Origin: an uncultured Terriglobales bacterium
Lineage (GTDB): Bacteria; Acidobacteriota; Terriglobia; Terriglobales; Acidobacteriaceae
Reading direction: 5' to 3'
DNA: 64,000 bases
Assembly (NCBI GenBank): GCA_964490255.1
Contig: CAZBCQ010000001.1
Coordinates: forward strand, 1,535 to 65,534
Numbering within the stretch: the stretch's first letter is position 1; every line of letters begins with the position of its first letter. Both the position numbers and the translations under genes were made by a program. Positions 38,848-56,642 of the stretch are shown one piece after another. Below the pieces are notes generated by a model. The model ran no database searches, had not been told where the DNA came from, and saw nothing but the letters and a program-made list of their open reading frames with translations.

Positions 38848-39348
38848 CTATTTTGCAGCTGGCAGAGCTTGCAGGACTCGCACCTTCCAGCGATTCTCTC
38901 CGGCGGTCATGACGACCAGATAGTTCTGCGTGAATTGATCAGAGTGGACGACCTTGTCACCGTCAAGCAGCTGCACTTCAAGGCGCGCAGTGTCGCGAAG
39001 TTGCATGGCTGAACCATCCTGCGAATAGAGCACCGCCTCAAGACTGTGGCCGTGATCGACGTAGCGAGTGTGCAGCCCCGATTTTTGCTGCTCGGCTACG
39101 CGCTGTCGAAGTTCATCCTGAGCGTAGCCAATGAAGTCATTCGCGAGCGCGTCGGCACGGTTTTCAGAAAGCGCTGTGGCAAGCGACTGCCAGGCACGAG
39201 TGTAATCACGAACTACCGCTTTCTCCGTGTTGTCTTCCATTTCGCGAGGCGCAACCCTCGACGGATTCAGCTGGACCGACAAAGGCTCAGCACCGAAGGC
39301 CGAAGCGCACAATAACAAGGAAGCGCCAACCGAAAGCAAGCGTTTCAT
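38848..39348 (-). CDS. Secreted hypothetical protein (NTF2/Tim44-like by eye)
   Basis: 166 aa with a signal peptide (LLLCASAFGA). It is the last gene of a four-gene operon and its ATG overlaps the upstream TGA (TGATG). Confidence 0.7.
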   Translation of the reverse strand: MKRLLSVGASLLLCASAFGAEPLSVQLNPSRVAPREMEDNTEKAVVRDYTRAWQSLATALSENRADALANDFIGYAQDELRQRVAEQQKSGLHTRYVDHGHSLEAVLYSQDGSAMQLRDTARLEVQLLDGDKVVHSDQFTQNYLVVMTAGENRWKVRVLQALPAAK

Positions 39349-40214: not shown

Positions 40215-40219
40215 GTTCG

Positions 40220-41326: not shown

Positions 41327-43071
41327 TATCGTGCCTCCCGCAAAACGACATCAGAGGCTGGAAATTCGAGCGGAATGGAAGCACGCCGCCGTTCGGGAAT
41401 CAGGAACACAGCAAGTAGAGAAAGTACGGCTACACCCATCGGCGCAAATCCCCAAAGCATTCCTTCCCAAGCGGCTGGCCTGGTCCCGAACTCGATCGGT
41501 TGGGCCGGCGGAACGTCATCCTTGACCCAGAGCGTGACTAATCCTCCGTCGTAGCTTTCGGTGGGACGCCATCCGGCAAAGGCGAGCAGAGGCTCGTAAT
41601 AGCGGTCGCGCACGAAGATATATTTCAGACCGTATTGATTGGCGTGCTTCAACATCGCGCGTAGCGATTCCATGCCGCCCACGCCGAAATACTTGGCACT
41701 GTCGAGTTTCGCCGCGCCGTACGATGTCATTTCCGGCAGGAGACGCGCGGTGTTGTAATCACCGTCGACGCTATCGGCGCGCGAATCGATGGACAGCTTA
41801 TCGAAAAGGCTACCGAACCCGAGGGTCACATAGCGGTACTTGGCGTGATCATCGCGATTCAGAAAATCGGATATCGGTCGCGTATCAAACGGTGTGACAG
41901 AAATAGGATTAAAGGTGACCCATGCCACGCCCATTGCGAATGTACCGGCAGCGGCGATCCACAATGCGATTGTGGCTTTGCTGCGGAACCGGGAGATCAG
42001 ATCTTCTGCAAGTAATCCCACAAAGGGCAACGCCATGCAGGTTGAGAGAAATGTAAAGCGCTCGTAGGTAAAGACGTAGTACAGGCGGCCAAACAGCAGG
42101 TGGGCAACCGGTGTGGTTCCGCCCAGGCCGATGAGAGTCGTGACCCACCAACCAATAAACAGAGGTTGCAAGCGCCGATCGCGCGCGCCTCGCCAAAAGA
42201 TAAACGGGATGGCGAGGATCATCGCCCCATACGGAATAATCCAGAAATTGACCCCATTCCGCAGGTCGAGCAGGTAATTGGTGCGGCTGGGGTGGGGAAT
42301 CGGCATCTGCGTCACTGGATTCTTGAAGAACGAGATCCAGAATGGCAGGAGTACCGCTGCGATTCCCGCGCCCGTGAGCGCGCCGAAGACGACGGCACGA
42401 CCGAGAATTCCTCCCACCGACGCTTCCGTGCCTTGTGTTTCATCATTGCGGTCGACCAACGCCAGCCAGATAACTGGGAATGAAAACAAGACGATCGTGA
42501 TCAGCGTCAAGTGGTGAACCGCTGCGGCGGACACAGTAATAAGGAACGCCTTCACCAGGTCAGCCACACGCGCTTCGCGCAGCCATCGATAGAAATAAGG
42601 AATGGCATTCACGGTGATCGCAGCACCAAGCGTCGTATTCAACTGACCCGATTGGTAGACCAGCATTGCCAGCGAACCCAGGAATATGCTGCCGAGCGCG
42701 GCGTAGCTGGCGGCGACTTCATCCACCCAGAGTCGTGCAAAGCGATAAACGCCGACCGTCAACAGCAGGATTGCGATCAGCTGGACAAACATATACGCGA
42801 GCAGCAATCCCATAGGAAACGAGAACAGCGCGATCAACTGGTGCGCGAGGGGTGGATATGTGGTCTGCGAGAAACCCGCGAACCACTTGGTATTCCATGG
42901 ATCGAACCAGTGCTGCGCGTAATGCGATGCGAAGAACATGTGGACGTACGCGTCGTATGAGCCGCTTGGAAGCTGCATCAGCAAGAGCGGCCCATGCACC
43001 GCGAACGCGATAAGCAAGATAGAAGTCAGGGATAAGCCGCGATTAGGACTGCCAGGAGAAACCGCAATCAC
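41326..43071 (-). CDS. Large polytopic membrane protein, GT-C-fold-like (family unassigned)
   Basis: 581 aa with more than 10 hydrophobic helices, an early loop SGSYDAYVHMFFASHY...YPPLAH and a soluble C-terminal ~170 aa. It is the first gene of the four-gene operon. Confidence 0.75.
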   Translation of the reverse strand: MIAVSPGSPNRGLSLTSILLIAFAVHGPLLLMQLPSGSYDAYVHMFFASHYAQHWFDPWNTKWFAGFSQTTYPPLAHQLIALFSFPMGLLLAYMFVQLIAILLLTVGVYRFARLWVDEVAASYAALGSIFLGSLAMLVYQSGQLNTTLGAAITVNAIPYFYRWLREARVADLVKAFLITVSAAAVHHLTLITIVLFSFPVIWLALVDRNDETQGTEASVGGILGRAVVFGALTGAGIAAVLLPFWISFFKNPVTQMPIPHPSRTNYLLDLRNGVNFWIIPYGAMILAIPFIFWRGARDRRLQPLFIGWWVTTLIGLGGTTPVAHLLFGRLYYVFTYERFTFLSTCMALPFVGLLAEDLISRFRSKATIALWIAAAGTFAMGVAWVTFNPISVTPFDTRPISDFLNRDDHAKYRYVTLGFGSLFDKLSIDSRADSVDGDYNTARLLPEMTSYGAAKLDSAKYFGVGGMESLRAMLKHANQYGLKYIFVRDRYYEPLLAFAGWRPTESYDGGLVTLWVKDDVPPAQPIEFGTRPAAWEGMLWGFAPMGVAVLSLLAVFLIPERRRASIPLEFPASDVVLREAR

Positions 43072-43472
43072 CGATTAGCCTCCGCAAGCATCGTTTCGGT
43101 GCAAGTAGGATTCCCAACTCGGCTGTTCGGGTTTTCTGATTTCCGGCGATTCCGTAACAAAAATTCCCCAGACAGAGAAGCTGGATCGCAAGAATGCGCG
43201 GTTCACGATGCGTTGGGTGCTTCGAATCTCACTATTTTCAGGGCGAATGCAAAGTGAGCGGCTGGGGAGAATACGTAACTCTGAAGCCGCCACAAGGGAA
43301 AAGTGAGTACTGGTCTGGACAATGAGGGAACCCCAGTACTCTTCGATCAGAAACGCCCAATGCAGAATACCCGCTGAAAATCACAGGATTCGGGAGAAAC
43401 AAAGCGAAGAATGCAACTTGGAACGCCATTTGCGAAACGTAACTAGCCACAGCTCCTAAATCCGGTGGTCTT

Positions 43473-46400
43473 GTGAAAAGTTTTCTAAATTACGTTACGT
43501 TCTGTTCCGTTCTATTGAGTGTTGCCGCCGCAGGTCAGACCTTCGAAGTCGGCGGGCAAGAGCAAAATAATGCGCCCCAGAAACCGGCCGCAGTGGGAAA
43601 GAAGAGCTCGCCTGCTTCCGGCGAGATTGGTTGGGGAAGCAGTATAGAAGTAGGGCGACTGGCGCGCGCCGCCGATAATGCGCTCGCGAAAGGCGACTAC
43701 ACAGGCGCTGCGAACTATGCAGATCGGGCCGTTCACGCCGCGCCGCAGGATCCCCAACTTTGGTTTCTCCTCGGATATGCATCGCGGCTGGCGGGTCGCT
43801 ACGGCGCTTCGCTGGACGCATACAAACACGGACTATCGATCAAGCCAGCATCGGTCGAAGGCCTGTCGGGTATGGCGCAGACCTACGCGCGCATGGGTCA
43901 AACCGAGGAAGCCAAGCGATTGCTTGTACAGTTGATCGCTGCGAATCCCAAGCGCGATAACGACCTTCTGATTGCCGGCGAGCTATTTATGCAGACCGGC
44001 GACGTGCCACAGGGGCTGACGTATCTGCAACGCGCTGAAGCGATGAAGCCCTCGCCACACGCCGAGTTGCTGATGGCAACCGCTTACATGAAATTGAAGC
44101 AGCCGGATCGTGCGCGTCAACTGCTCGAGTCGGCGAAGCGACGCGCCCCCAATGATCCTGATATCTACCGTGCCATCGCGAACTACTACCGTGAAGTTCA
44201 CGATTACAAGAGTGCGATCGCGACTTTGAAGTCGATCCCAAAGCCGACGTCCGAGGTTCTTGCGGACCTCGCCTACAGTTACGCACTAAATGGAGATAAG
44301 GAAGAATCGGCGGCGACGTATGCGCGTGCCGCACAGGAAGCGCCCCACCAGATCGGCCTGCAATTGAGCGCAGCGCAAGCCGAATTGGTTGCCGGAGAGT
44401 CTGAAAAGGCGCGGCAATTCCTGGCGAAGGCCGAAGCGATGGATCCGAATCACTACAGGCTGCATGCCATCAAGGCTGCGCTTGCGAAGAGCGAAAAGCG
44501 CAATGCGGACGCGATTGTCGAATACAAGATCGCGATCAGCCGGCTGCCGGGCGACGGCGTACCTGAGGGCGTGCTGTTTCCGATCCAGTTGCGATTGAAC
44601 CTGGCGGAACTTTACCGCGAGCAGGGTGATGTCGAATCCGCCAAGCGGGTGGTTGCCGAAGCCGAGCAGCAGATGCAATCGCTCAACCTGCAAGGGCCCG
44701 AGCGCGCGGAATTCCTGCGGGTAAGGGCTGGAATCAAAACAGCGGGTGAGGACTATACCGGCGCAGAGGCGGATCTAAGAGAAGCGCTCACGTTGGACCC
44801 GGAGAACACGAACATTTCTCTGGAGTACGCAAATCTGCTGTGGAAGCTGAAGCGAAAAGACGAGGCGCGGAAGTTGTATGCAGCGGTGCTGAACACCGAC
44901 CCCAAGAACCGTTATGCACTCGAGGGGATGGGCTATCTCTATCGCGAAGATGGCGATGTGAAGATGTCAGCAGCGTATTTTCACAAGCTGGCGGACGCAT
45001 ATCCCACTGACTATGTCCCTTATTTAGCGCTGGGAGATTTGTACGCCTCGGTCGCTCAGTACAAAGAAGCTGACGCCAATTATGTGAAGGCGCACGAACT
45101 CGCACCCGACAATGCCACGGTGATCGCCAATGCGACCAACGCGGCAATCGAAGCGCACGACACACCGCTCGCGGGCCAGTGGGTTAAGTACATCAAAGAC
45201 GAGATGAGGGACGACCCGCGCATCATGCGCGAGGAGGCACGTTACCTCTTCCACGAAGGCAAATATCGTGAGTCGGCGCAGCTTGCGGCGAAGGCGCTGC
45301 AGAAACTGCCCAATGACAGGAACGCCTCGGTCTACCTCGCTTACGACTACTACAATCTGGGTCGCTACGACGACACCCTGGCGCTGACGACCAAATACGA
45401 GAAGCTGCTTCCCAAAGAGCCAAACTTCCCGCTGCTCAGCGGGCATGTGCATAAGCAAACACAATTGCTGAGCCAGGCGGTGGACGACTATACGCGCGCC
45501 ATCGATAAGGACCCGAAACTTGCCGAGTCGTACATCAACCGTGGATATGTCCTCAACGATCTGCAAAACCCGGAAGCGGCAGCACAGGATTTTGATGTAG
45601 CACTCAAGTTGAGTCCGAATAACGGAGTCGCGCACCTGGGCGTGGCATTTTCAGATCTGCAACTGCGCAGAAGCAAGTCAGCGCTGGACCAGGTAGACAC
45701 GGCAGAAAAATTGATCGGCGAATCAGGTGCAACGCATCTGGTGCGCGCTACCGCATATCGGCAGGAGCGGTTGCTGAACAAGGCGGACACGGAGTATCGC
45801 GCAGCGCTGAAGTATTCCCCGCAAGATGTGCGTTTGCAACTGGCTTTGGCAGACACGTTGTACTACATGCGCCACTACAACGATGCACTCGGCACGTTGA
45901 AAGACGCTTTAGCTCTGCAACCGGACGATCCATTCATCTATGCGCAAATGGCGCAAACGAGCGCCGAGCTGAAGAACCGCGACGAGACGTTGAAGTACGT
46001 CAGCCTGGCTGAGAAAGAAGGCGGCGATCAGGCCAGCGTTCTGTTGGCAACTGGAAGCGCGCTACTGACGTTGGGTGAAAAAGATCCAGCGATGCAGCGG
46101 TTCACGGAAGCATTGGACGCTCCGGACTCGGATCGAGTAAGCGTTCGCCTGGCATTCGCTCGCGTGATGCAGAAGCAAGGCAAGTGGGACGACGCGCGCG
46201 AACAAATCAGCCTGGCATTTGCGGAAGCGCGGATTGGCGAAGCGAATCCGGTCACGCCCGACAATCTGATCGAAGCCGGCAACATTTTCCTCGCCATGCA
46301 TGACTTCGACCTGGCGCAGCGCATGTTTGAGCGCGCCGGCAAGGAAGGCGCGGCCGACGAGGTTGTTGCCGTGGGATTGGCGAACACCTACCTGGCTCAG

Positions 46401-47654
46401 GGAAACACGGCCCTCGCGCAGACGGAATTGGCGCGCCTGGGCAGTCCGTCCGATCTGCAGCAGAACTATGACTATCAGATGGCGATGGCTGGAATGTATC
46501 GGCAACGCCATGATGACGTGCACGCGCTCGGCGCCTTTGCGCAAGCGAATATGCTGGGCGGAGAGACAGACGACAGCGTCGAACTCAGTTTGCAAGAGAT
46601 TGCCGCATCCGAAGGCTTGCGAATCAATGATCGACTGAGCGTGGGAACAGACTTATTGCTGACGCCCGTCTTTCTCGATCCTACGATTTACATCCTTGAC
46701 GCACAATTGTTTGGAGCCGGGCCGAATGGAGCACTGCCGCCTCCACGTCGTCAGTACCAGACGCAATGGACGAATGGCTTCAAAATGCATGTTAACGGTC
46801 TGCCGGTTATTAGCGGCTTCGTGCAGGAGCGTAATTTCCAGGGGCAGCTGTCGCTGCCAAGTCAGCTGGTAATCGTAAATAACAACACCTTTGACACCTC
46901 ATTCAACGGAGCGCTGAACCCCGTATTGCGATTCGGCCGGAACACGCTTGTGTTCAATGCCGGGCTTCAATACACGATCCGTCGCGACAAAGACTCGCCG
47001 GTGCTGATCAACCAAAACCTGTTTCGGCAGTTTGTTTACATGAATTCGAACTCCTTCTGGAACTGGATCTCGGTCCAGGGGAGTGCGTATCACGAAGCTG
47101 GGCCGTACACGCTCCAAAACCTCAATTCTCGCGATCTTGGTGCGAATCTGCAGTTCACGGTTGGCAGACCATGGGGAAAAACAGCGTTTGTAACCGGCTA
47201 CACGGTCAGGGACCTGCTTTTCAATCCGCTGATACGCGAATTCTTTACGACCTCGACATACGGGGGCTTCACTCGGAAATTCGGGACGAGAGTAAATGTA
47301 ACAGCCGTCGGGGAGTACATCAGATCGTGGCGTGTACAGAATTCTGCGTATGCGATCGCACAAGCGTTGCGTCCGGCGGGTGTGGTCGATTTTCGCGTCA
47401 ACAGAAACTGGGAGGTGAACTTCAGCGCATCGTGGGGAAAAGGCGAAGGAAACTCAATCTATGACAACGTCCAGAGTGGATTTCTCATCTCTTATGTAAA
47501 GCCGATACGCCGCTCTGTAGATTCTGGAGCCGGTCCGATACCGGTCGATTATCCGCTGCGAATATCCGCCGGATTGCAACTGCAAGATTTTTACAGCTTC
47601 ACTGGCCAGAAGCAGGCAATGTACGAACCCGTATTTCGCCTGAGTCTTTTTTAG
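43473..47654 (+). CDS. Giant secreted TPR-repeat protein with C-terminal outer-membrane beta-barrel-like domain (PelB/BcsC/PgaA-type architecture)
   Basis: GTG 43473; 1393 aa. The signal peptide (VLLSVAAAGQ) is followed by ~1000 aa of TPR-like repeats. The last ~350 aa are beta-rich with alternating aromatics and end in ...YEPVFRLSLF, a terminal Phe typical of the OMP beta-signal. Confidence 0.85.
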   Translation: MKSFLNYVTFCSVLLSVAAAGQTFEVGGQEQNNAPQKPAAVGKKSSPASGEIGWGSSIEVGRLARAADNALAKGDYTGAANYADRAVHAAPQDPQLWFLLGYASRLAGRYGASLDAYKHGLSIKPASVEGLSGMAQTYARMGQTEEAKRLLVQLIAANPKRDNDLLIAGELFMQTGDVPQGLTYLQRAEAMKPSPHAELLMATAYMKLKQPDRARQLLESAKRRAPNDPDIYRAIANYYREVHDYKSAIATLKSIPKPTSEVLADLAYSYALNGDKEESAATYARAAQEAPHQIGLQLSAAQAELVAGESEKARQFLAKAEAMDPNHYRLHAIKAALAKSEKRNADAIVEYKIAISRLPGDGVPEGVLFPIQLRLNLAELYREQGDVESAKRVVAEAEQQMQSLNLQGPERAEFLRVRAGIKTAGEDYTGAEADLREALTLDPENTNISLEYANLLWKLKRKDEARKLYAAVLNTDPKNRYALEGMGYLYREDGDVKMSAAYFHKLADAYPTDYVPYLALGDLYASVAQYKEADANYVKAHELAPDNATVIANATNAAIEAHDTPLAGQWVKYIKDEMRDDPRIMREEARYLFHEGKYRESAQLAAKALQKLPNDRNASVYLAYDYYNLGRYDDTLALTTKYEKLLPKEPNFPLLSGHVHKQTQLLSQAVDDYTRAIDKDPKLAESYINRGYVLNDLQNPEAAAQDFDVALKLSPNNGVAHLGVAFSDLQLRRSKSALDQVDTAEKLIGESGATHLVRATAYRQERLLNKADTEYRAALKYSPQDVRLQLALADTLYYMRHYNDALGTLKDALALQPDDPFIYAQMAQTSAELKNRDETLKYVSLAEKEGGDQASVLLATGSALLTLGEKDPAMQRFTEALDAPDSDRVSVRLAFARVMQKQGKWDDAREQISLAFAEARIGEANPVTPDNLIEAGNIFLAMHDFDLAQRMFERAGKEGAADEVVAVGLANTYLAQGNTALAQTELARLGSPSDLQQNYDYQMAMAGMYRQRHDDVHALGAFAQANMLGGETDDSVELSLQEIAASEGLRINDRLSVGTDLLLTPVFLDPTIYILDAQLFGAGPNGALPPPRRQYQTQWTNGFKMHVNGLPVISGFVQERNFQGQLSLPSQLVIVNNNTFDTSFNGALNPVLRFGRNTLVFNAGLQYTIRRDKDSPVLINQNLFRQFVYMNSNSFWNWISVQGSAYHEAGPYTLQNLNSRDLGANLQFTVGRPWGKTAFVTGYTVRDLLFNPLIREFFTTSTYGGFTRKFGTRVNVTAVGEYIRSWRVQNSAYAIAQALRPAGVVDFRVNRNWEVNFSASWGKGEGNSIYDNVQSGFLISYVKPIRRSVDSGAGPIPVDYPLRISAGLQLQDFYSFTGQKQAMYEPVFRLSLF

Positions 47655-47668
47655 GTCAGAAGGGATTC

Positions 47669-48919
47669 ATGAAAATCTGTCTAGTTACTGCATTTCCGCC
47701 GAGCCGGCGGGGGCTGAACGAATACGGGTATCACATTGCACGGGAGCTGCAGGCAGACTCACTGCTTAGCGTTACGGTGCTGGCGGACGAAATCGAGCCA
47801 GACAAAACTGAGCTGCCCGACTTTGATGTGCAGCGGTGCTGGAAGTTCAACAGTGTTGCGAATCCCGTGAAACTGCTGAAAGCAGTGCGGGAGATCAGGC
47901 CTGACGTGGTGTGGTTCAACCTGCTGTTCTCGACTTTCGGAAACGATCCGATACCGGCATTCAATGGATTGGCCACGCCGGCACTTACGAGAATGGCCGG
48001 ATATTACACGCACGTTACGTTGCATCACCTAATGGACAATGTCGATCTTTCGCACGCAGGCGTCCGATCTCAGCGTTTGTATCGTGCGGCGGGATCGATG
48101 GCAACGCGCATGTTGCTGACCGCGAATTCGGTGTCGGTGCTCCTTCCCGCCTATCGCAGGACGCTGATGGAGAAATATCGGGGCGAAAATGTGCATTTTC
48201 GTTCCCACGGCATCCTCTCGGCGCGACCGGAATATCCAAACCTTGCGCTACGAGGGAACCCGGAACATCGAATCCTGGCGTTTGGCAAGTGGGGAACTTA
48301 CAAACGGCTGGAATTACTGATTGATGCATTCAAGATTGTCAGCAAGCAGCTCCCGAATGTGAGGCTAGTTGTTGCGGGTGAGAACCACCCCATGACTCCG
48401 GGATACGTCGAATCAATAGCGGAACGAGTCGGACGCGACGATCGCGTAGAGTTCACCGGCTATGTAGCAGAGGAGAACCTACAAAACCTGTTTTCAACGG
48501 CTACGTTACTGGTGATGCCCTATTCGTCGGCTACCGGTAGCAGTGGCGTTGCGCATTTGGCTTGTCAGTACGGTGTGCCCATCATCTGTGCCGATATCGA
48601 TGATTTTCGCGACATGGCTACTGATGAGGGGTTAGCTATTGATTTTTATCACCGCGGCCAGCCGGAGCATCTGGCGGAAAAAATTGCGGAGCTAGTGCAG
48701 TCTCCGGAGAGGCAATACGAGATGGCCGAAGCGAACTTCTATGCAGCGCTCAGAATGACTATGCCGCAGATCATGAGGCGTTATTTGCGCTCGTTCGATG
48801 TTCATCAACGAGCGAAGGCCCTGGAACCGATTTCAAGGTTTCGGCGCTTACCCGCGTGGATTCCTTCAAGGTCTGCGATATTTCGAGCAGCCGCACCGAG
48901 GTGGTCGCCGTGGATGTAA
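47669..48919 (+). CDS. Glycosyltransferase, GT4 (group 1) family
   Basis: 416 aa. The N-terminus MKICLVTAFPPSRRGLNEYG and a C-terminal Rossmann half (RLVVAGE..., VEFTGYV..., LLVMPY..., GVPIICADI) fit the GT-B/GT4 pattern. It lies 14 nt after the TPR gene. Confidence 0.88.
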   Translation: MKICLVTAFPPSRRGLNEYGYHIARELQADSLLSVTVLADEIEPDKTELPDFDVQRCWKFNSVANPVKLLKAVREIRPDVVWFNLLFSTFGNDPIPAFNGLATPALTRMAGYYTHVTLHHLMDNVDLSHAGVRSQRLYRAAGSMATRMLLTANSVSVLLPAYRRTLMEKYRGENVHFRSHGILSARPEYPNLALRGNPEHRILAFGKWGTYKRLELLIDAFKIVSKQLPNVRLVVAGENHPMTPGYVESIAERVGRDDRVEFTGYVAEENLQNLFSTATLLVMPYSSATGSSGVAHLACQYGVPIICADIDDFRDMATDEGLAIDFYHRGQPEHLAEKIAELVQSPERQYEMAEANFYAALRMTMPQIMRRYLRSFDVHQRAKALEPISRFRRLPAWIPSRSAIFRAAAPRWSPWM

Positions 48920-50091
48920 AAGCAATCCTAATCGTGGCGCCGCCCGCAGAAGACAGACAGGGCTCTGGCGCGGAACTAGTCGGCGGTATGCCACTGGCGT
49001 TTGCCGATGTCCTCGGTCGGCCAATGCTCTACCGTATCGCCGACCGCCTTGCAAAGAACGGAATTCAACCGGTAGCGGTCATCAGCGAATCGGTCGTGAA
49101 CTCGTGGCCTACCGCCATGCCGGGCGAAGCTCCCAACGTTCAATGGACACAAGCCAGCGCGCCCAATCTGTGGCGAGCCGCGGAAAACGTCTTTACAGAA
49201 TTCGCACAGTCCGGCGCCGACGCGGTGCTGGTCTGGCGAGTCGGCGCTTACGCTGAATTCGATATAGACGAGTTCATTCAGTTCCACGTGGACAATCAAT
49301 GCCATGTGACCACCATGGCCGATGCGGATGGCTTTCCGCTGGACATCTGCATGATCGCGGCTTCCCGCAGAAATGACGCCGCCTATGCGTTGCGTCACCA
49401 GTTGCACAAATTCCGCGGTTCGAACACGACCTACTACTTCGACGGATTCTGCAACCGTTTGTGCGACAGCCACGACTTGCGACAGTTGGCGATTGACTCA
49501 CTGCAACAACTAACAGACATCAAGCCCGAAGGCCGGGAAGTGAAGCCAGGCATTTGGTTCGGTAAAGGAGCGCGTGTCCATAAACGCGCACGAGTCCTGA
49601 GCCCGGCATTCATTGGCAGCAAAGTTCGAGTAAGAGCGTCAGCGGTGATCACACGATGCACTTCGCTCGAACACCACGCCATCATTGATTGCGGCACCGT
49701 AGTGGAAGACGTCAGCGTGCTGCCATACAGTTACGTTGGAGCCGGGCTTGATGTTAGCCACTCGGTGGTAGGTTTCCGCCGCCTGTGGAACCTGCCGCGA
49801 AATGTAGAGGTTGAGATTTCCGACGCGAAGCTGGTGGGAATGGCCTCGAGCAATGCGCCCATGCGAGTGCTGGCCAGCGCCGCCTCGCTGGTCAGTTTTA
49901 TCCCTGCACAAGTCTTGCGTGGCCTGTTTGCGCCGTCCCAGCGCGGATATGCCACATCGCTGCCGGAAGCTGTCAGCGAACCCTGTGCAGCACTTAAGAA
50001 TCCGGCAAGCTTGCCCGCAGCCGCGCCGTCAGTGGATGCAGGCGAGTTCCCTGCCAATTTAGTAGCCGCGAGGAGATATGGAAACGAGTAA
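48856..50091 (+). CDS. Nucleotidyltransferase-like / left-handed beta-helix (hexapeptide-repeat) protein
   Basis: The N-terminal part resembles sugar-1-P nucleotidyltransferases (VKAILIVAPP...GRPMLYRIADRLAKNGIQPVAVI). The C-terminal part has hexapeptide repeats (VHKRARVLSPAFIGSKVRVRASAVITRCTSLEHHAIIDCGTVVEDVSVL...). The real start may be GTG 48901 or 48910. It overlaps the GT4 stop. Confidence 0.72.
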   Translation: MDSFKVCDISSSRTEVVAVDVKAILIVAPPAEDRQGSGAELVGGMPLAFADVLGRPMLYRIADRLAKNGIQPVAVISESVVNSWPTAMPGEAPNVQWTQASAPNLWRAAENVFTEFAQSGADAVLVWRVGAYAEFDIDEFIQFHVDNQCHVTTMADADGFPLDICMIAASRRNDAAYALRHQLHKFRGSNTTYYFDGFCNRLCDSHDLRQLAIDSLQQLTDIKPEGREVKPGIWFGKGARVHKRARVLSPAFIGSKVRVRASAVITRCTSLEHHAIIDCGTVVEDVSVLPYSYVGAGLDVSHSVVGFRRLWNLPRNVEVEISDAKLVGMASSNAPMRVLASAASLVSFIPAQVLRGLFAPSQRGYATSLPEAVSEPCAALKNPASLPAAAPSVDAGEFPANLVAARRYGNE

Positions 50092-50506
50092 GCCCGTCAT
50101 CGTAAAACGCATGCCCGATCGCCTGAACCAGAAGCAGGCGCGCACGTTTCTTAACGAAGTACAGCCGTTCCTGAATACAGATCGCCCACAGCTCGTTTTC
50201 GATTGCTCACAGATTCGCCAGATGGACGCAGCAGGAGTCGATATGCTGCTTCGCTGCATGGCCGAGGTGATGAGACGCGACGGCGAGTTGAAGCTCGCGA
50301 AACTGTCACCTCAAGCAGCCGTGATTCTGGAACTTACACGGACGGATCGCTTGTTTGAAATTTTTGAGACGTCCGGCGACGCAGTAAAGAGCTTCCAGCG
50401 TTTCCTTCCTGGCGCGATGAAGAACCTTCCAGTTGCCAGCCCGATTCTGATGAAGCGGGCCCAAGCGGAATATTACCCCGAGTCTGACAAACCGGCCGCG
50501 GCCTGA
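50078..50506 (+). CDS. STAS-domain protein (anti-sigma-factor-antagonist fold)
   Basis: ATG 50078 follows AGGAGA and overlaps the upstream gene by 14 nt. The STAS pattern is ...QLVFDCSQIRQMDAAGVDMLLRC...ELKLAKLSPQAAVILELTRTDRLFEIFET. Confidence 0.85.
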   Translation: METSKPVIVKRMPDRLNQKQARTFLNEVQPFLNTDRPQLVFDCSQIRQMDAAGVDMLLRCMAEVMRRDGELKLAKLSPQAAVILELTRTDRLFEIFETSGDAVKSFQRFLPGAMKNLPVASPILMKRAQAEYYPESDKPAAA

Positions 50507-50598
50507 GCATCTGAAGGTTTAAGGATGGGGCAAGAACGAAGGAACATGAACGCCCATTGCAAGCTGCCGGAGAGGATCCACTTGGGTCGAGGTAGAAC

Positions 50599-51915
50599 GT
50601 GGTGATGAAACCTGGAACGCTCGCACCTGATCCCCCACGCCTTGGTTGGCGCGATGCCGTCGCGACACTGCGATCAGAGCCTGCACACACGCGCATTCTG
50701 GGCGGCAGCATCATCATGCTGGTAGGTTCGGGGCTGGTGAGCGTAGTCAACTTCGGCTACAACGTCGCAGTCGCGCGCATGCTCGGTCCTAGAGCCTTCG
50801 GACACGCGGCAGCAGCAGTTACGCTGCTCATGCTGGTATCAGCCATCACGCTATCGTTCCAGCTAGTTTGCGCGAAGCTGCTTGCCAAGACGGAGATCAA
50901 GACCGAGCGTGCCGCTCTTTACTCCGCTCTTCTCCGTCGCTCGTGGGCGGTTGGTCTGATACTTGGTTCTGCACTGTTGCTTGCGAGCGGGCCGGTGGCA
51001 CGGTATCTGAACCTACCCTCGCCCTTGATCGTCGTACTTTTAGCGCTGGGTATCGCGTTCTACATTCCGCTTGGAACCAAACGGGGTGGGCTCCAGGGAA
51101 CATGCGCGTTCACAAAGCTAAGCTGGAACTTCCTTCTCGAGGCCAGCGTCAAGTTCTGTGGAGCGCTGTCCCTGATTGAGCTTGGGTACGGAGTGAACGG
51201 CGCGGTGGCTGCCATTTCCATCTCGGTCGTTCTGGCCTACTTCATACCTCCTATTCCCGAGGAGCTGAAGATCGCTCCTGGCGGCCACGTCAAGACATCG
51301 TTCCGCGAGGGAATGCAGGCCATCGTCTTTTTCACCGGGCAGGTGGTGATCAACAATATCGACATCTTGCTTGTGAAACATTTCTTTGCGCCCGACAGTG
51401 CGGGACAGTACGCGGCAATCGCGCTAGTTGGTCGCGTCATCTATTTCGCATCGTGGTCGGTTGTCAGTGCAATGTTCCCGATTTCCGCCGCAGCGCAGCC
51501 CAAGAAAGAAAATGTTTCGGTGCTGGTGGTGCCAATCCTGATTGTGCTGGGGATTGCGATTACTTTCATTATTGGACTAAGCCTATTTCCGGATCCTGTG
51601 CTGCAAGCGGTGTTCGGTGCCGGATTCCAGGGCGGAGCAAACCTCGACGGCCTGCTGAGCCTGTATGCCGCCGCAACCGGCACCTATTCCCTCGGCGTCG
51701 TTTTGATGGCGTATGAGATGTCGCGCCGCATTGCCAACACGGGTTGGCTGCAGCTGGCCGTCAGTGGCGCGATTGTTATTGGAATTTACCTGTTTCACAG
51801 CACCCTGCACCAGGTCGTGCTCGTCCAGCTCGTATTGATGGTTGGGCTACTCATGATTGTTTCTATTCCGTTCTTTCGCCAAGACCGGCACTCTGTCCTG
51901 GAGGAAGCAGCATGA
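50599..51915 (+). CDS. MOP/PST-superfamily polysaccharide transporter (Wzx/PelG-like flippase)
   Basis: 438 aa with ~12-14 TM helices. The N-terminal GGSIIMLVGSGLVSVVNFGYNVAVARMLGP..FG is typical of polysaccharide biosynthesis (PST) proteins. The start is GTG 50599 or ATG 50605. Confidence 0.85.
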   Translation: MVMKPGTLAPDPPRLGWRDAVATLRSEPAHTRILGGSIIMLVGSGLVSVVNFGYNVAVARMLGPRAFGHAAAAVTLLMLVSAITLSFQLVCAKLLAKTEIKTERAALYSALLRRSWAVGLILGSALLLASGPVARYLNLPSPLIVVLLALGIAFYIPLGTKRGGLQGTCAFTKLSWNFLLEASVKFCGALSLIELGYGVNGAVAAISISVVLAYFIPPIPEELKIAPGGHVKTSFREGMQAIVFFTGQVVINNIDILLVKHFFAPDSAGQYAAIALVGRVIYFASWSVVSAMFPISAAAQPKKENVSVLVVPILIVLGIAITFIIGLSLFPDPVLQAVFGAGFQGGANLDGLLSLYAAATGTYSLGVVLMAYEMSRRIANTGWLQLAVSGAIVIGIYLFHSTLHQVVLVQLVLMVGLLMIVSIPFFRQDRHSVLEEAA

Positions 51916-52658
51916 AACGACTGCGACGCGTCACCGAATCAGAAGTGATCGCGGAATTCCTCAAGAATGAGTTCTACCAGGAAGAATTCCACCGTGACCG
52001 CCACCGGTACGAACATTTAGTGCTGGATGCGGACCTCACGAACGAAGAAGACAACCTGCTCCGGCGGGTATTGCTGTTCCGTCGCCGCGGCCACATGTGG
52101 CGCGAACTACCGACGGACACGCAATGGTGGGAGGTAGAACTCGAGCCTGAAGACCTGATGCTGATCCGCGTCTTCCCGCGTGCACACTGGCGGAAAATCG
52201 CCAATGGCAGCTTCGCGTTGAATGACATCGTTCATCAAATCCGGTCGCACAAGTTCTCCGGGCGTGTCGGAGATTTCATCTCCAAAATTCAGTCGCTGAG
52301 CTATCGATTGCGCTACGACAACGATTCCAGTTCGGTGATCCTGATCGGATTGGATGAGGAGCACCCAATCACGATCATCGAGGGTAATCACCGAATGACC
52401 GCGGGCATGCTCAGTTCGCCAGAAACGATACACAAACGATTCCGCGTCTTCATGGGAATGTCGGAACGGATGTCTGAGGTGTGTTGGTACAACGGCACCT
52501 TGGGGAACATCTTGCGATACGTGAAAAACCGGGTCCGGCACATGTGGATTGACTCGGATGGCGATCTTATCCAGCCGAAGGACGTGGAAGCCGCACCAAC
52601 AACAACTTATTCACCGAAGGCAGTAGCTGCACGGAATTCAATGTCGGAGCCGAAGTAG
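51912..52658 (+). CDS. Uncharacterised soluble protein with ParB/Srx-like 'EGNHR' motif
   Basis: ATG 51912 overlaps the flippase TGA (ATGA). The 248-aa product has no TM helix. The motif is ...VILIGLDEEHPITIIEGNHRMTAGML... No family is confidently recognised. Confidence 0.7.
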   Translation: MKRLRRVTESEVIAEFLKNEFYQEEFHRDRHRYEHLVLDADLTNEEDNLLRRVLLFRRRGHMWRELPTDTQWWEVELEPEDLMLIRVFPRAHWRKIANGSFALNDIVHQIRSHKFSGRVGDFISKIQSLSYRLRYDNDSSSVILIGLDEEHPITIIEGNHRMTAGMLSSPETIHKRFRVFMGMSERMSEVCWYNGTLGNILRYVKNRVRHMWIDSDGDLIQPKDVEAAPTTTYSPKAVAARNSMSEPK

Positions 52659-52677
52659 GTCCGGCCCAAGTCACGAA

Positions 52678-53223
52678 ATGGAGTACCCCATGAGCAACAG
52701 ATCACAATGGCTGACTCGAATGATGATCGGAGCGATGTCCTTCGCTCTTTGCGGCGGTCCCGAACTGATGCAAGCTCAATCCACCACGCCGCAAGCTTCC
52801 ACTCCGCAAAGCGCAACGCCCGATCCGAGCCGTGGACCGCAGCAGCCTGCCGGGAATCAGCCGGCTGCGCCGCTTCCTGAAGCGCCGAGCGCCGACGTGC
52901 CGAGCACCGCTCCGGCTACTCCGAGCGCCAGTAGCTCATCGCAAAAGGACGCAAGCGCCAGCAGTCCGCAGACGCAGTCGACGCAAGCACCGACTGGAGC
53001 CGCCGCTGCTCAGCGTGCCGAGACTGCAGGTGGCGCGGCGTCGAGACCGGCCGGAAACGCGATTGCGCCTGCGAAACAACGACAGACGCGATCGCTGCTC
53101 ATCAAAGTCGGTGCAGTTGCCGCAGCGGGAGCCGCGGCCGGAATCATTTACGGACTTTCGCGTGGAACGGGTTCGGTGCCTCCCGGAGCCAGGACAACTG
53201 CAACCGCGGCAGGCGGACACTAA
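52678..53223 (+). CDS. Low-complexity P/A/S/Q/T-rich secreted protein with C-terminal hydrophobic anchor
   Basis: 181 aa with a signal-like N-terminus (MMIGAMSFALCGGPELMQAQS), a ~110-aa disordered region and then IKVGAVAAAGAAAGIIYGL. Confidence 0.55.
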   Translation: MEYPMSNRSQWLTRMMIGAMSFALCGGPELMQAQSTTPQASTPQSATPDPSRGPQQPAGNQPAAPLPEAPSADVPSTAPATPSASSSSQKDASASSPQTQSTQAPTGAAAAQRAETAGGAASRPAGNAIAPAKQRQTRSLLIKVGAVAAAGAAAGIIYGLSRGTGSVPPGARTTATAAGGH

Positions 53224-53293
53224 GTAAATAGGCACGTAAAACGGATTGGTCCCTCTTCGCGACAGAACGGGATCCCGCCGGGTTCGACTGAGC

Positions 53294-54001
53294 ATGCAAA
53301 AATTCCAGGCCCACGACAAAAAACAGCCGATGTTGATCAGTTTTTCCGGTATGGACGGCGCTGGGAAAAGCACACAAATCTCAAACTTGCGAGCGTATGC
53401 AGAAGATCTTGGGCTGCACGTTACCCAACTCGCATTCTGGGATGATGTGGTGGTGTTGAAGCCCTACCGCGAGAGCTTCGTTCAAAAAGTGTTCAAGAGC
53501 GAAAAAGGAATCGGTTCACCAGAGAAGCCCGTCGAGCGCCGGGATAAGAATGTGCGCGGGTGGCATTTGAACCTGGTGCGGCACGGGCTGTACTCGCTCG
53601 ACGCGGTTCACCTCCGCGGAGTTGCGGGACGAGCGGGGTCGAGTGAAGCTGATCTGGTGATCATGGATCGCTACATCTACGATGAGCTTGCAAATCTGCC
53701 GCTGGAGAATCCAGTAACCCGCGCCTATGTGCGTGCGGTGATGAAAATGGTGCCGCAACCGGACATAAGCTTCGTGCTGGATGCGGATCCAGTAGCAGCG
53801 CGAGCACGCAAACCAGAGTACCCGGTAGACTTTCTGCACAAATGCCGGGCTTCTTACCTGCGATTGGCGGAACTACTCGGGAACATTACGGTGGTGCCCG
53901 CGCTCGGCCTCGCGGACGCGCGCCATTTCATCGAAGTAGCGTTCCGCGCCCTGCTGGAACGCCGCCGAAGGGCACGCGCAGCAGCCTGGCGCGCTGCTTA
54001 A
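53294..54001 (+). CDS. Thymidylate-kinase-like P-loop kinase (divergent)
   Basis: From ATG 53294 the sequence reads ...MLISFSGMDGAGKSTQ (P-loop, dTMP-kinase style), then MDRYIYDE (DRY-like) and a lid-like ARARKPEY. It is the last gene of the co-directional cluster. Confidence 0.72.
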   Translation: MQKFQAHDKKQPMLISFSGMDGAGKSTQISNLRAYAEDLGLHVTQLAFWDDVVVLKPYRESFVQKVFKSEKGIGSPEKPVERRDKNVRGWHLNLVRHGLYSLDAVHLRGVAGRAGSSEADLVIMDRYIYDELANLPLENPVTRAYVRAVMKMVPQPDISFVLDADPVAARARKPEYPVDFLHKCRASYLRLAELLGNITVVPALGLADARHFIEVAFRALLERRRRARAAAWRAA

Positions 54002-54008
54002 GCTAGGT

Positions 54009-55106
54009 TCACTCAAGAAACATGCAGTCGCCGTATGAGTAGAAGCGATAGCGCTGTTCGACGGCGTGTCTGTAAGCTGCCAGGACATGCTCTTTACCTC
54101 CAAATGCCGACACCAGCATCAGCAGCGTGGACTTCGGCAAATGGAAGTTCGTGAGCATCGCGCTGACGACTTTGAAGTGGAATCCCGGATAGATGAATAG
54201 CCCCGTTTCGCCCGAGCCAGGGTGAATCGTTCCATCAAGCGCGTTTCGAGCAGCATGTTCGAGCGTTCGCACGCTGGTTGTGCCTACCGCGATGACACGT
54301 CGATGCTCCTGAAGAGCCCGCGTGATTTTTGCGGCAGCGCCCTCCGTGATCTGATACCACTCGCGATGAAGCTGATGATCTTCGACCCGCTCTTCATGGA
54401 CCGGCTGGAACGTTCCCAAACCGACGTGGAGGGTGAGTTCTGCTGTTTCGATTCGACGTGTCCCAAGTTCCGCCAGGATTTCCGGGGTGAAGTGCAGACC
54501 CGCAGTCGGAGCAGCCACGGACCCGCGCTCGCGAGCGTAGACCGTCTGATAACGTTCGCGGTCGCCGGGCTGATCGTCGCGTCCGATGTAGGGCGGCAGC
54601 GGTACGTGCCCGATGCGCTCGACGACGTCGAAGAAATCTGCCTTCCGGTTGAAGCGCAATGTGCGCTCGCCGAACTCGCCGCGGGCTGTGACTTCAGCTT
54701 CTAACTCATCGGATTCGCCGAAATAGAGATACTCGCCCACTCCGATCTTGCGCCCGGGACGAACCAGGGCCGTCCATTCGTTTGTCGCGGAGCCTGCAAC
54801 TTGCTTGACGAGTAGCGCCTCCACGCGGCCGTGAAGGAAGTCTTTCATCGCCGGATTCTGCGGGCTTAGCTGTTGTGCGCGGGCACCGCTTCGATGCCCA
54901 TAAAGCCTTGCCGGAAACACGCGCGTGTTGTTGAAGACGAGCAGGTCGCCCGGACGGAGAAGCCCAGGAAAGTCGCGAAACGACATATCGCGAAACTCGC
55001 CAGAGTGGCGACCGACGCGCAGCATGCGCGAGGCGGCGCGATCGGCAAGGGGCTCCTGCGCAATCAGATCTTCGGGTAGGTGGTAATCAAACTCGGAGAC
55101 GAGCAC
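54009..55106 (-). CDS. queA: S-adenosylmethionine:tRNA ribosyltransferase-isomerase
   Basis: 365 aa. [40 protein letters not shown] and [10 protein letters not shown] are all QueA hallmarks. Confidence 0.95.
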
Positions 55107-55137: not shown

Positions 55138-56490
55138 TCAGTCGGTGGCAGAGACTCGATACAACGCCGAAGCATGCGGTCTCAGCGTGACGTTCAGTGA
55201 CGTGAGCTTAGGCTTGTTGGAGCCGCTCCACAGGTCATGCAGCTTATAATCGCCCGCGGTCAGGCCCAAATCCTTCCACTCATAGTGAAGCGACTGTTCC
55301 GCTTCGCTGATGTTGAACACGGCTATGTAGTGGTCCTCCCAGTTTTCCCCGCGCGCAGTCCATACAACAGTGTTGTCTGTGGTGACCACTGGGCGATTCT
55401 CACGCGAGTGCTGATTAACCCCAATCACCTCCGGGTTCGAGAGCAGAGAGGTGGTCCATTCGTCCATGGAGAGCAGATCGCCCCCGATCATCAGCGGAGA
55501 GCGCATCATCGACCACAGCGTCACGAGCGTGTTCTGTTCGTCACTCGTAAACTTGGTGTCGCGCACGTCACCTTCGCCGGGATGCGGTGCAAGCCGTCCG
55601 ATAGGCAGCATATCCGCGTCCGGCCAGTGTCCGGGAGCCTTGAACGAAGCCCACTGCGCCGCCGTGGTGAATTGCGCAAGAAGCCCTTGCGACCACGCGT
55701 GTCCCTCCCACGTGCCCCAGTGATCCCAGAAGTCATTGGAGATGCGCCACATTTCCGCAGATTTCGAAACTTCGTCTGCCTTGTCGAGTGCGGTCGGACC
55801 GGGTGAAAGGCTCAGCACAATGGGACGTCCAGTCTTATCGAGCGCAGCGCGAAGCATGCGGATCTCGTCCGCCTTATACGGATGGTCAGCGATGCAATCG
55901 GCTTTCACGAAATCCACGCCCCAACTCGCATACAGCTTCGCGATCGAGTCATAGTAGGCCTGCCCCGCAGCATTGTCCTTCACACCGTAGTTGTAGGCAT
56001 TCCACGGACAGACGTCGGATCGATCCGCGGCATCGGCCGCATGGAAAGACGAATCCGCGATTGGCAAATTCTTGTCTACTGCCTGGCGGGGAATACCGCG
56101 AATGATGTGGACGCCAAATTTCAGGCCTAGCGAGTGAACGTAATCCGCGAGCGGCTTGAATCCCGCTGCTTTAACTGCAGACGGATACCGCGCCGGAGCG
56201 GGGATAAAGCGTCCGTCATCGGTGAGGGCGAAACGAAACTCCTCAGGCTTCCCTCCAACATTCACGATGTACCACCCCTCGTCGATTACGACGTATTGCC
56301 ATCCGAAACGCTTCAGATGCTTCGCCATCCAGTCGGCATTCGCACGGAATTGTGATTCCGTGAGGGTCTGTCCATAGGAATCCCAGCTGTTCCAGCCCAT
56401 GGGCGGCGTGGGAGCGAGAAGTGCGTCGGCAGCAAAGAGGGGAACGGACATCGATACGAACGCGATCGTCAGGAGCGCACAGATCTTCAT
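55138..56490 (-). CDS. Secreted alpha-galactosidase-like glycoside hydrolase (GH27 family)
   Basis: ATG 56490 gives a signal peptide. PPMGWNSWDSYG, YVVIDEGW, VDFVKADC and a C-terminal beta-sandwich are typical of GH27. Confidence 0.88.
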   Translation of the reverse strand: MKICALLTIAFVSMSVPLFAADALLAPTPPMGWNSWDSYGQTLTESQFRANADWMAKHLKRFGWQYVVIDEGWYIVNVGGKPEEFRFALTDDGRFIPAPARYPSAVKAAGFKPLADYVHSLGLKFGVHIIRGIPRQAVDKNLPIADSSFHAADAADRSDVCPWNAYNYGVKDNAAGQAYYDSIAKLYASWGVDFVKADCIADHPYKADEIRMLRAALDKTGRPIVLSLSPGPTALDKADEVSKSAEMWRISNDFWDHWGTWEGHAWSQGLLAQFTTAAQWASFKAPGHWPDADMLPIGRLAPHPGEGDVRDTKFTSDEQNTLVTLWSMMRSPLMIGGDLLSMDEWTTSLLSNPEVIGVNQHSRENRPVVTTDNTVVWTARGENWEDHYIAVFNISEAEQSLHYEWKDLGLTAGDYKLHDLWSGSNKPKLTSLNVTLRPHASALYRVSATD

Positions 56491-56642
56491 GGGAATATCT
56501 TCGGCTGTCCGAATCATGCCAGCCACACAAATCTACACCGGTCGCAACTTTGCCAAACAGAATTTTCCCGGAGAGAAACTGTTGCTTTTCGATTGCATCA
56601 GCTCACTGTTCTGAACGCCGCGCGGCGTGATACAACAACCGT

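Follow-up and report, generated by a model that had tools for sequence, protein, structure and literature searches.

The 64,000-nucleotide (nt) stretch of an uncultured Terriglobales bacterium analysed here (the window) carries a locus of 12 genes at positions 38848 to 54001. Eight of them (g1 to g8, 43473-54001) are co-directional on the plus strand, and four (u1 to u4, 38848-43071) form a divergent unit on the minus strand. Our results indicate that the locus very probably serves the assembly and export of a glycan. More specifically, we tentatively favour a mosaic, lipid-linked route for the assembly and export of an envelope or extracellular polysaccharide, a reading that we place somewhat short of an even chance. 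Judged from its predicted proteins, the locus is not a true Pel system, nor a standard Wzx/Wzy cluster, nor a GT2-synthase system, and our literature search found no paper describing it. An earlier note on the same DNA had taken the eight plus-strand genes for an undescribed variant of synthase-dependent, Pel-like secretion. That they belong to a conserved glycan secretion locus holds; the synthase-dependent mechanism is not proven by a TPR-porin alone, and a unit led by a probable GT-C enzyme is attached to the locus. Likewise, the eight genes are real, but an equally conserved divergent unit of four genes had been overlooked, and the locus reaches upstream to 38848.

Conservation of the gene order, which the earlier note had named as a check, is borne out in Terriglobia. 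We scanned one genome per species with the g6 family, recovered a relative in at least 173 species-level genomes, and compared the best 80 loci. These are metagenome-assembled genomes labelled Terriglobia, Terriglobales, Acidobacteriaceae or Korobacteraceae, except for three (Clostridia, Verrucomicrobiia and Saccharimonadales), and the closest loci share about 90% amino-acid identity with ours. According to tblastn searches with all window proteins, g1 to g8 keep the same order and strand in 68 of the 69 eligible species-level genomes, that is, those whose loci have enough flank. Median identities are 70% for g2, 67% for g4, 59% for g6 and g8, 57% for g1, 55% for g5, and 44% for g3 and g7. The divergent unit is kept along with them: u1, with a median identity of 63%, precedes g1 in divergent orientation in 68 of 70 loci, and u2 to u4 follow u1 wherever this region is visible (L081, L083, L086, L087, a JGI contig and the frameshift-fragmented L082). 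The surroundings vary. The 3' edge of the locus is sharp, with queA beginning at 54009 on the opposite strand, and prmC is the outer neighbour of the divergent unit; only in the six closest relatives is g8 likewise followed by queA, an alpha-galactosidase and aconitase. Directly after g8, 43 of 79 loci carry a gene for an OmpA-family (peptidoglycan-binding) protein with a low-complexity N-terminus (e.g. L074:12248-13306, plus strand), which likewise follows g8 in the JGI contig, and in other loci housekeeping genes come next. An order that is kept while the flanks differ between lineages goes far beyond chance and marks a functional unit.

The arrangement of the plus-strand genes is that of an operon-like unit. 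The list of open reading frames (ORFs) and their translations contains eight plus-strand ORFs between 43473 and 54001, and the junctions described before were reproduced when the sequence was read directly. g1 and g2 are 14 nt apart, g2 and g3 overlap (by 10 nt with the GTG start of g3 at 48910), and g3 and g4 overlap by 14 nt (ATGGAAACGAGTAA), where AGGAG stands 3 nt 5' of the g4 ATG. A 92-nt gap separates g4 from g5, g5 and g6 overlap by ATGA, 19 nt separate g6 from g7, and about 70 nt lie between g7 and the probable ATG of g8 at 53294. Ribosome-binding sites of downstream genes are located within upstream genes, and a terminator scan found no terminator-like hairpin in any gap between g1 and g8. 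The tiny gaps and overlaps, the internal ribosome-binding sites and the lack of terminator-like sites in the gaps count for co-transcription of these eight genes. The two units are separated by 401 nt (43072-43472), which presumably hold their promoters; in 64 related loci this region measures 207-575 nt and is conserved near the gene starts only, as seen in an alignment. No match to the sigma-70 consensus was found in 43072-43472, and consensus scans for promoters and terminators returned matches below shuffle expectation and were uninformative. An Rfam search of 38500-54500 at E ≤ 1 found no family, so that neither a cyclic di-GMP (c-di-GMP) nor another riboswitch is detectable 5' of g1.

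The clearest sign of polymer export is g1 (43473-47654, plus strand, 1393 amino acids [aa]). Its N-terminal part (43473-46634) comprises a signal peptide and about 1000 aa of periplasmic TPR repeats, with a Pfam TPR_19 match at E 3e-61 and many further TPR families up to about residue 986. The C-terminal part (46635-47654), which ends in ...RLSLF, had been proposed to form a beta-barrel, and structure prediction agrees. An AlphaFold2 model of residues 1001-1393, computed with 37 homologues as input, shows a barrel of 16 strands over residues 1055-1393 with a mean confidence (pLDDT) of 83.9. Foldseek returned 104 matches in the PDB at E ≤ 1e-3, and all 50 of those listed are outer-membrane barrels. 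The top TM-scores belong to PgaA (4y25, 0.50/0.65) and BcsC (6tzk and 9b8a, 0.48-0.49); AlgE reaches 0.40. At the sequence level, the last 393 residues have no Pfam or NCBIfam match, even at E ≤ 10, and no PDB sequence match, and the best NCBIfam matches of g1 (PrsT, PilW and PgaA) are all far under their cut-offs and at the level of the TPR repeats.

The TPR scaffold and the barrel share a single ORF in 55 of 70 relatives of g1. The remaining 15 are split at variable positions, mostly in MFD metagenome assemblies, and we rejected a natural division into a TPR gene and a porin gene of the AlgK/AlgE kind. Because the breakpoints vary and other genes of such loci are fragmented too, we read these splits as assembly frameshifts. 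A g1 broken into several frames at variable positions, accompanied in some loci by a broken u1, u3 or g3, was seen in L013, L016, L018, L037, L041, L042, L047, L049, L054, L055, L060, L062, L072, L074, L078, L082 and L083, which come mostly from MFD metagenome assemblies. The broken frames look like assembly indel errors, and such indels would explain the many 'stand-alone' barrel proteins of 390-450 aa found for this family in databases.

A second component points to a lipid-linked intermediate. g5 (50599-51915, plus strand, 438 aa) is a polytopic transporter of the MOP superfamily with about 11 hydrophobic segments, of the Wzx-type PST family. The protein itself lies just under detection, with no direct Pfam match, and its assignment comes from the family: 25 of 28 members match PF01943 (Polysacc_synt, best E 2.8e-13) and 3 of 28 match PF13440. 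Seven families were matched at E ≤ 1, and none of the 28 members hit the family named after PelG, which we take to be PF16933 in Pfam. In the source annotations, g5 homologues are named 'oligosaccharide flippase family protein', and their precomputed Pfam hits agree.

g5 is tightly associated with g6 (51912-52658, plus strand), a 248-aa cytoplasmic protein of an unannotated family. More than 1150 homologues were found, all hypothetical and without Pfam domains, and the family is marked by the invariant motif EGNHR (E157 G158 N159 H160 R161). Among the 120 best g5 matches, 33 are fusions of 675-739 aa that end in a g6 part (57% identity); two such fusion genes were seen in a normal operon context, and where g5 and g6 are separate genes, they overlap by 4 or 26 nt. 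The AlphaFold2 model of g6 (pLDDT 82.7) has sulfiredoxin-ADP, Noc, ParB-CDP, Spo0J, a serine kinase, DndB and GmrSD-N as its top Foldseek matches in the PDB and BFVD, all with E > 0.1 and non-significant. A local pattern of strand-turn-strand-G-x-x-R-helix (ITIIEGNHRMTAGML) resembles the GxxR box of the genuine ParB encoded in the window (LELVAGQRRLLASQAAG). Pfam ParB_N matches none of 19 family members, and hhalign of g6 against that same ParB gave a probability of 0.1. It is plausible but unproven, and for us a lead, that g6 is a ParB/sulfiredoxin (Srx)-like domain that binds nucleotides and sits on the cytoplasmic face of the PST protein. Searches of the PDB by sequence or profile with g5, its family or g6 returned nothing useful.

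The divergent unit adds the third component. u1 (41326-43071, minus strand), a polytopic membrane protein of 581 aa, probably belongs to the GT-C clan (PTPS_related). It has about 10 transmembrane segments in its N-terminal part, followed by a soluble domain (about residues 385-540) and a single C-terminal transmembrane segment. We found 816 relatives. Distant ones, at E 1e-50 to 1e-100 to u1, exceed the gathering score of PF10131 (35.1 against 26.4 bits for P0450) and show a weak PMT_2 match, and the u1 orthologue in L087 carries a precomputed PF10131 hit. The family shares a first-loop motif, SYDAYxHMFFAxHY...YPPLxHQ, in which Asp39 and YPPL are near-invariant; such a pattern, with a conserved acidic residue in the first periplasmic loop, is expected for GT-C enzymes. 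Members of this clan use polyprenyl-linked donors in the periplasm, a trait foreign to carrier-free synthase-dependent systems. PF10131 is a member of the GT-C clan CL0111 (PMC7801869). A Pfam scan showed that u1 is not a member of the Wzy_C family.

Three proteins with periplasmic or secreted features accompany u1. u2 (40220-41326, minus strand), whose start shares its codon position with the stop of u1, is a 368-aa bitopic periplasmic protein with a single transmembrane segment at residues 5-23 and an FxLYD/DUF3426-like C-terminal part (NCBIfam FxLYD_dom 29.4 bits, cut-off 23; DUF3426 27.6 bits, cut-off 27.7). u3 (39348-40214, minus strand, 288 aa) has an N-terminal hydrophobic leader, either signal or anchor, and a weak bacterial Ig-like signal (Invasin_D3/Big_1): its Pfam Invasin_D3 match (E 6e-5) is under the cut-off, and the L081 homologue has a faint precomputed Big_1/Invasin_D3 match. 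The position of u3 is kept in L081-L083, with 47-64% identity across the pieces. The last gene of the unit, u4 (38848-39348, minus strand), codes for a 166-aa secreted protein with a signal-like leader and no Pfam or NCBIfam match; homologues occupy the same position in L081-L083 (39-48% identity) and in the JGI contig. More generally, direct Pfam and NCBIfam scans were unproductive for u1, u3, u4, g5 and g6 even at E ≤ 10, apart from the sub-threshold match of u3.

Natural fusions tie u1 to partners within and beyond its own unit. Many relatives, of 965-1160 aa, carry u2 at the C-terminus of u1, and u2 is 47% identical to the corresponding part of P0361 and 27% to that of P0370. In P0363 (1007 aa), a u1 module (50% identity) is followed by a full-length GT4 of the g2 type (50% identity), an arrangement that would put the C-terminus of u1 in the cytoplasm and have the GT4 act on u1. 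In P0489, a u1-like module is joined to a Wzy_C domain.

The GT4 of the locus is g2 (47669-48919, plus strand, 416 aa), a cytoplasmic glycosyltransferase with a GT-B fold (Pfam Glyco_trans_1_4 E 1e-19, Glycos_transf_1 E 2e-19) and atypical residues at its active-site motif positions. Its family is unusually conserved, with a mean column identity of 80%, and includes the invariant S287..G290.SGVAH296 within a wider stretch, PY.S..G.SGVAH.A...G.PI, at residues 284-305. GT4 enzymes usually carry EX7E at this position; in g2 both glutamates are replaced and His296 is invariant. The family also has a conserved, basic, Trp-rich C-terminal tail. From these residues, the donor or the mechanism of g2 may be unusual. 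Among the 21 NCBIfam families that match g2 at E ≤ 10 there is no PelF model, the presence of such a model in the library being unverified.

g3 and g4 appear to form a pair. g3 (48856-50091, plus strand, with the likelier GTG start at 48910, as in relatives) combines a nucleotidyltransferase-like domain with a left-handed beta-helix (LbH). Of 25 family members, 23 match Hexapep, 22 LbH_EIF2B and 8 NTP_transf_3. Against the PDB, the family profile finds a UTP-glucose-1-phosphate uridylyltransferase (8x7s, E 2e-7) as well as sugar-1-phosphate nucleotidylyltransferases of the ST0452 type with a C-terminal beta-helix. The phosphate-binding motif GxGTR(L) is not conserved in the family, where a variable stretch stands instead. 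g3 is probably catalytically degenerate, and 'pseudo-nucleotidyltransferase-LbH' is a fair label. g4 (50078-50506, plus strand, 142 aa) is a single-domain STAS protein (Pfam E 1.7e-12) of a non-phosphorylatable type: at the phospho-serine position of anti-sigma antagonists, its orthologues have DAAG (18/22), DAGG (2/22) or DSAG (2/22), and no HATPase-type kinase or PP2C phosphatase was found in the cluster by Pfam and NCBIfam scans. On these sequence features, g4 is not part of a partner-switching module of the SpoIIAA/RsbV kind, and with neither a phospho-serine site nor a kinase or phosphatase partner it is expected to act by binding. The 14-nt overlap of the two genes is conserved across the family, and the nucleotides that encode the invariant C-terminal RRYGNE of g3 also hold the AGGAG Shine-Dalgarno sequence and the start of g4 (METS...). 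This arrangement suggests strict translational coupling of g3 and g4. We also considered RRYGNE as a docking peptide and set the idea aside, since the nucleotide-level constraint from the Shine-Dalgarno sequence and start of g4 explains its invariance at least equally well.

The unit ends with two smaller genes. g7 (52678-53223, plus strand) encodes a 181-aa low-complexity protein rich in Ala, Ser, Pro, Gly, Thr and Gln (22% Ala, 12% Ser, 12% Pro and 8% Gln). It begins with a hydrophobic leader and has a C-terminal transmembrane segment at residues 139-157; all 80 loci carry a homologue in this place, with an identity of about 44%. g8 (53246-54001, plus strand, probable start ATG 53294) is a P-loop kinase resembling thymidylate kinase (TMK). 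It matches Pfam Thymidylate_kin at E 1.6e-9 and reaches 40.9 bits with TIGR00041, the NCBIfam equivalog model of dTMP kinase (Tmk), whose curated cut-off is 83.25, and its family keeps the invariant motifs FSGxDGxGK[ST]T (the P-loop), DRY and RKPEYP. By these motifs and scores, g8 has a TMK-like fold and probably kinase activity but is not the housekeeping Tmk. With this, the domain labels given earlier to g1-g8 are confirmed by Pfam and NCBIfam, by family profiles and by the invariant EGNHR, and the unusual accessory set of STAS, pseudo-nucleotidyltransferase-LbH, possible ParB/Srx-like and TMK-like proteins is indeed present.

Variant loci show which parts hold together. L082 and L083 have u4 to u1, g1 and a fused g5g6 and lack g3, g4 and any match to g7. 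Taken together with the displaced or missing GT4 genes of L083, L008 and L086 described below, these loci define a core of u1-u4, g1 and g5-g6, near which the genes for the GT4 and the kinase lie; g3 and g4 are accessory. The accessory and regulatory set that had been ascribed to the operon is thus there, but its STAS and pseudo-nucleotidyltransferase members are not core. In L087, a run of sugar genes directly follows g8 (L087:13505-22121) and codes for a UDP-sugar dehydrogenase, a GT2, a GFO/IDH/MocA oxidoreductase, a 594-aa phosphoglycosyltransferase (PF00953) and a 4,6-dehydratase; the run is interrupted by a fusion gene for type II restriction-modification. Upstream of u4, L081-L083 have genes for a weakly Glyco_hydro_99-like protein, an NTP_transf_5 protein and a response regulator, and downstream one for a PF04185 phosphoesterase. 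None of these adjoins the cluster in the window.

From the domain identities, the barrel model, the conserved order and the fusions, we infer the following route. At the membrane, docked on u1, the GT4 g2 would add one or more sugars to a polyprenyl-phosphate-linked acceptor, the initiating transferase being encoded elsewhere. The Wzx-type g5 would flip the lipid-linked unit, and g6, as a partner or fused domain, would control or modify flipping. In the periplasm, the GT-C enzyme u1 would polymerise or transfer the unit together with u2 and the secreted u3 and u4. The polymer would be guided by the TPR scaffold of g1, about 1000 aa long, and exit through its 16-strand barrel. g3 and g4 would be a dispensable regulatory pair of the binding type, g7 a low-complexity membrane-anchored accessory protein, and g8 an active-looking TMK-like kinase whose acceptor is likely a nucleotide or another phosphorylated intermediate. 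We favour a lipid-linked step because g5 belongs to PF01943, the Wzx/RfbX family, and has no match to the PelG-named family, because the linked u1 probably belongs to the GT-C clan and is fused to GT4 and Wzy_C in relatives, and because L087 has an adjacent initiating transferase (PF00953). Porins of the PgaA/BcsC type, even with TPR domains, already occur beside Wzx/Wzy- and ABC-type pathways (bioRxiv 10.1101/2022.02.11.480155), which makes such a mosaic combination biologically reasonable. In a bolder form, which we regard as doubtful, the locus would be a hybrid of Wzx/Wzy and synthase-dependent routes, with a Wzx flip gated by g6 as a nucleotide-binding domain of a new family, GT4-coupled polymerisation by a PTPS_related GT-C enzyme and direct handover to the TPR-porin without Wzc or Wza, widespread in soil Terriglobia.

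Several observations weigh against the lipid-linked route. Neither the 12 genes nor the conserved flanks contain an initiating phosphoglycosyltransferase, a Wzy_C/O-antigen polymerase, Wzz/Wzc or Wza. A GT4, a PST/MOP protein and a TPR-porin are exactly the Pel trio, and Pel is described as needing no lipid carrier. u1 itself has no Pfam match, and its GT-C membership comes from transitive homology and the precomputed hit of one orthologue. The fusion of u1 with a GT4 is found on a single 12-kb contig and calls for caution. The GT4 is displaced in L083, where it lies together with the TMK-like gene about 8 kb away, and L008 and L086 have no GT4 between g1 and g3. The ParB/Srx fold assignment of g6 is not statistically significant, and the support for the route as a whole is computational.

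Comparison with characterised systems shows partial likeness to each of them. With Pel of Pseudomonas aeruginosa (PelA-G), the locus shares a long periplasmic TPR protein with an outer-membrane barrel (PelB), a cytoplasmic GT4 (PelF) and a polytopic MOP protein (PelG), in a co-directional operon with extra cytoplasmic and membrane proteins around the transferase. The earlier identification of PelB-, PelF- and PelG-type parts stands to that extent: g1 has a PelB-type architecture, for which we claim no specific PelB homology. However, g5 is of the Wzx type (PF01943) and not of the PelG-named family, and the GT4 shows no PelF-specific similarity in the NCBIfam search and has atypical motif residues. 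As had been noted, the PelA deacetylase/hydrolase, the PelC lipoprotein, the PelD GAF-GGDEF c-di-GMP receptor and PelE are absent, and Pfam and NCBIfam scans found none of them in the 12 proteins or the flanking genes. Moreover, Pel lacks the conserved, probable GT-C membrane enzyme and its three periplasmic partners. With PgaA, of poly-N-acetylglucosamine export, and BcsC, of cellulose export, g1 shares the signal peptide, the long TPR superhelix and the C-terminal 16-strand barrel, and these proteins give the best PDB TM-scores. The likeness does not extend to the barrel sequence, nor to the partners of g1, which are not a GT2 synthase with a PilZ- or PgaD-type co-subunit: in agreement with the earlier note, the same scans found no GT2, PilZ, BcsB, Alg44 or PgaD-like protein in the cluster, and the sole GT2 lies downstream in L087.

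With Wzx/Wzy pathways, including the EPS, MASC and BPS systems of Myxococcus with their PgaA-like Wzp porins, the locus shares a Wzx-type PST protein, cytoplasmic sugar addition by a GT4, a polytopic candidate for the periplasmic step (u1), a PgaA-like barrel as exit and, in L087, a PF00953 transferase with sugar-nucleotide enzymes. It differs from them in that the conserved unit and flanks lack Wzy_C, Wzc/Wzz, Wza/OPX and an initiating transferase, the periplasmic enzyme is a probable PTPS_related GT-C, the porin has its own TPR scaffold of about 1000 aa, and the flippase has a novel cytoplasmic domain (g6) as a partner or fused to it. The earlier note had allowed that the genes might belong to a standard Wzx/Wzy cluster with its missing parts encoded nearby in relatives; such parts were not seen in recurrent flanks, PF00953 being present only in L087. 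Finally, the locus would follow the logic of three-component periplasmic glycosylation systems with a GT-C enzyme (ArnC/ArnEF/ArnT, GtrA/GtrB/GtrC and CsbB/GtcA/YfhO), in which a sugar is linked to a lipid by a cytoplasmic transferase, flipped and then used outside by the GT-C enzyme; the P0363 fusion would fit such coupling. In contrast to these systems, the locus uses a GT4 and not a GT2, and a PST protein of the 12-transmembrane class and not a small flippase like GtrA or EmrE, and its dedicated TPR-porin implies export of a polymer over decoration of an existing envelope molecule.

These likenesses leave other explanations to be weighed against the lipid-linked route. The same proteins could make up a carrier-free synthase of the Pel kind, in which the GT4 would polymerise from a nucleotide sugar, the PST protein with g6 would translocate the chain, the TPR-porin would export it and u1-u4 would only modify or anchor the polymer; the STAS protein, the pseudo-nucleotidyltransferase and g6 would then replace PelD and PelE as regulators or co-polymerase. 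We hold this to be unlikely, while giving it serious weight. A GT4, a MOP protein and a TPR-porin are otherwise known together only in Pel, which has separate transferase and translocation subunits; the conserved unit has no phosphoglycosyltransferase, Wzy, Wzc or Wza; the sensor-like cytoplasmic g3, g4 and g6 occupy the place of PelD and PelE; and 'pel-like' clusters defined by no more than pelF and pelG proved to be distant Pel homologues (epsSMASH preprint). Yet the flippase falls in PF01943 with 0 of 28 family members in the PelG-named family at E ≤ 1, the GT4 has no PelF-specific match in NCBIfam, and PelA, PelC, PelD and PelE are absent from the scans. A peripheral role is also hard to square with u1, which is conserved like the core (68/70 loci) and fused to a GT4 in one relative, and the supposed substitutes g3 and g4 are dispensable in variant loci. 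In addition, pel was reportedly detected only rarely in soil genomes (epsSMASH preprint).

If u1 instead transferred a lipid-linked sugar to an envelope acceptor, such as g7, another surface protein or an outer-membrane glycolipid, the locus would be a periplasmic glycosylation system and g1 an outer-membrane assembly or translocation factor. GT-C enzymes of the PMT, ArnT and PglB kind do transfer to proteins or lipids, the Ala/Ser/Pro/Thr low complexity of g7 is typical of bacterial O-glycosylation targets and the gene is always in the operon, the OmpA-family gene comes next in 43 of 79 loci, and conservation as high as that of g2 (70%) and u1 (63%) speaks for a housekeeping role in the envelope over a variable exopolysaccharide (EPS). 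We nevertheless judge this improbable, as a TPR scaffold of about 1000 aa with a 16-strand barrel like that of PgaA/BcsC is a polymer exporter in all characterised cases, no precedent ties such a porin to protein glycosylation, and the sequence of g7 is weakly conserved and finds no counterpart in L082/L083. That two or more unrelated systems lie side by side, by chance or through local genome stability, could draw on the sequence-based nature of the support for co-transcription, on the uninformative promoter and terminator scans, and on the absence or relocation of the GT4 and of g3/g4 in some relatives. It is nonetheless highly improbable, given that 68 of 69 genomes share the gene order and spacing at protein identities of only 44-70% and with changing outer flanks on either side, that genes overlap by 4-26 nt, and that three independent kinds of fusion join members of both units.

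Other genes of the window were recorded in passing. An alpha-galactosidase (Melibiase_2 with a C-terminal domain; 55138-56526, minus strand) and a 355-aa protein without a Pfam match (56627-57694, plus strand) are conserved in the six closest relatives only. Further away lie genes for a 1074-aa outer-membrane barrel protein with CarboxypepD_reg and OMP_b-brl_4 domains (126-3350, plus strand), a 641-aa TPR protein (21211-23136, minus strand) and a membrane acyltransferase of the HGSNAT_cat type (30950-32095, plus strand). The window also contains parB (28871-29770), parA (29811-30590) and rsmG/gidB (32406-33143), all on the minus strand, and its cumulative GC skew is lowest at about 24-26 kb. 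Given these genes and the skew minimum, the window is probably adjacent to the chromosomal origin of replication.

Among soil bacteria, Terriglobia rank with the most abundant groups. Their extracellular polymers are credited with a part in soil aggregation, while next to nothing has been described of the genetics of these polymers. Many uncharacterised EPS loci are already expected in the field; the largest cluster families from soil (Microflora Danica) are all uncharacterised (epsSMASH preprint). The cluster described here is one of the most conserved glycan loci in Terriglobia, and no characterised system matches it. It reuses known types of module in a combination, and with accessory domains, that we have not found described, and its many natural gene fusions predict, in a concrete and testable form, which proteins are in contact. 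Were the mosaic route true, it would provide the first functional context for three unannotated protein families, namely the EGNHR domain of g6, the PTPS_related GT-C proteins together with u2, and the TMK-like g8, and the division of polysaccharide export into Wzx/Wzy, ABC and synthase-dependent pathways would be too simple.

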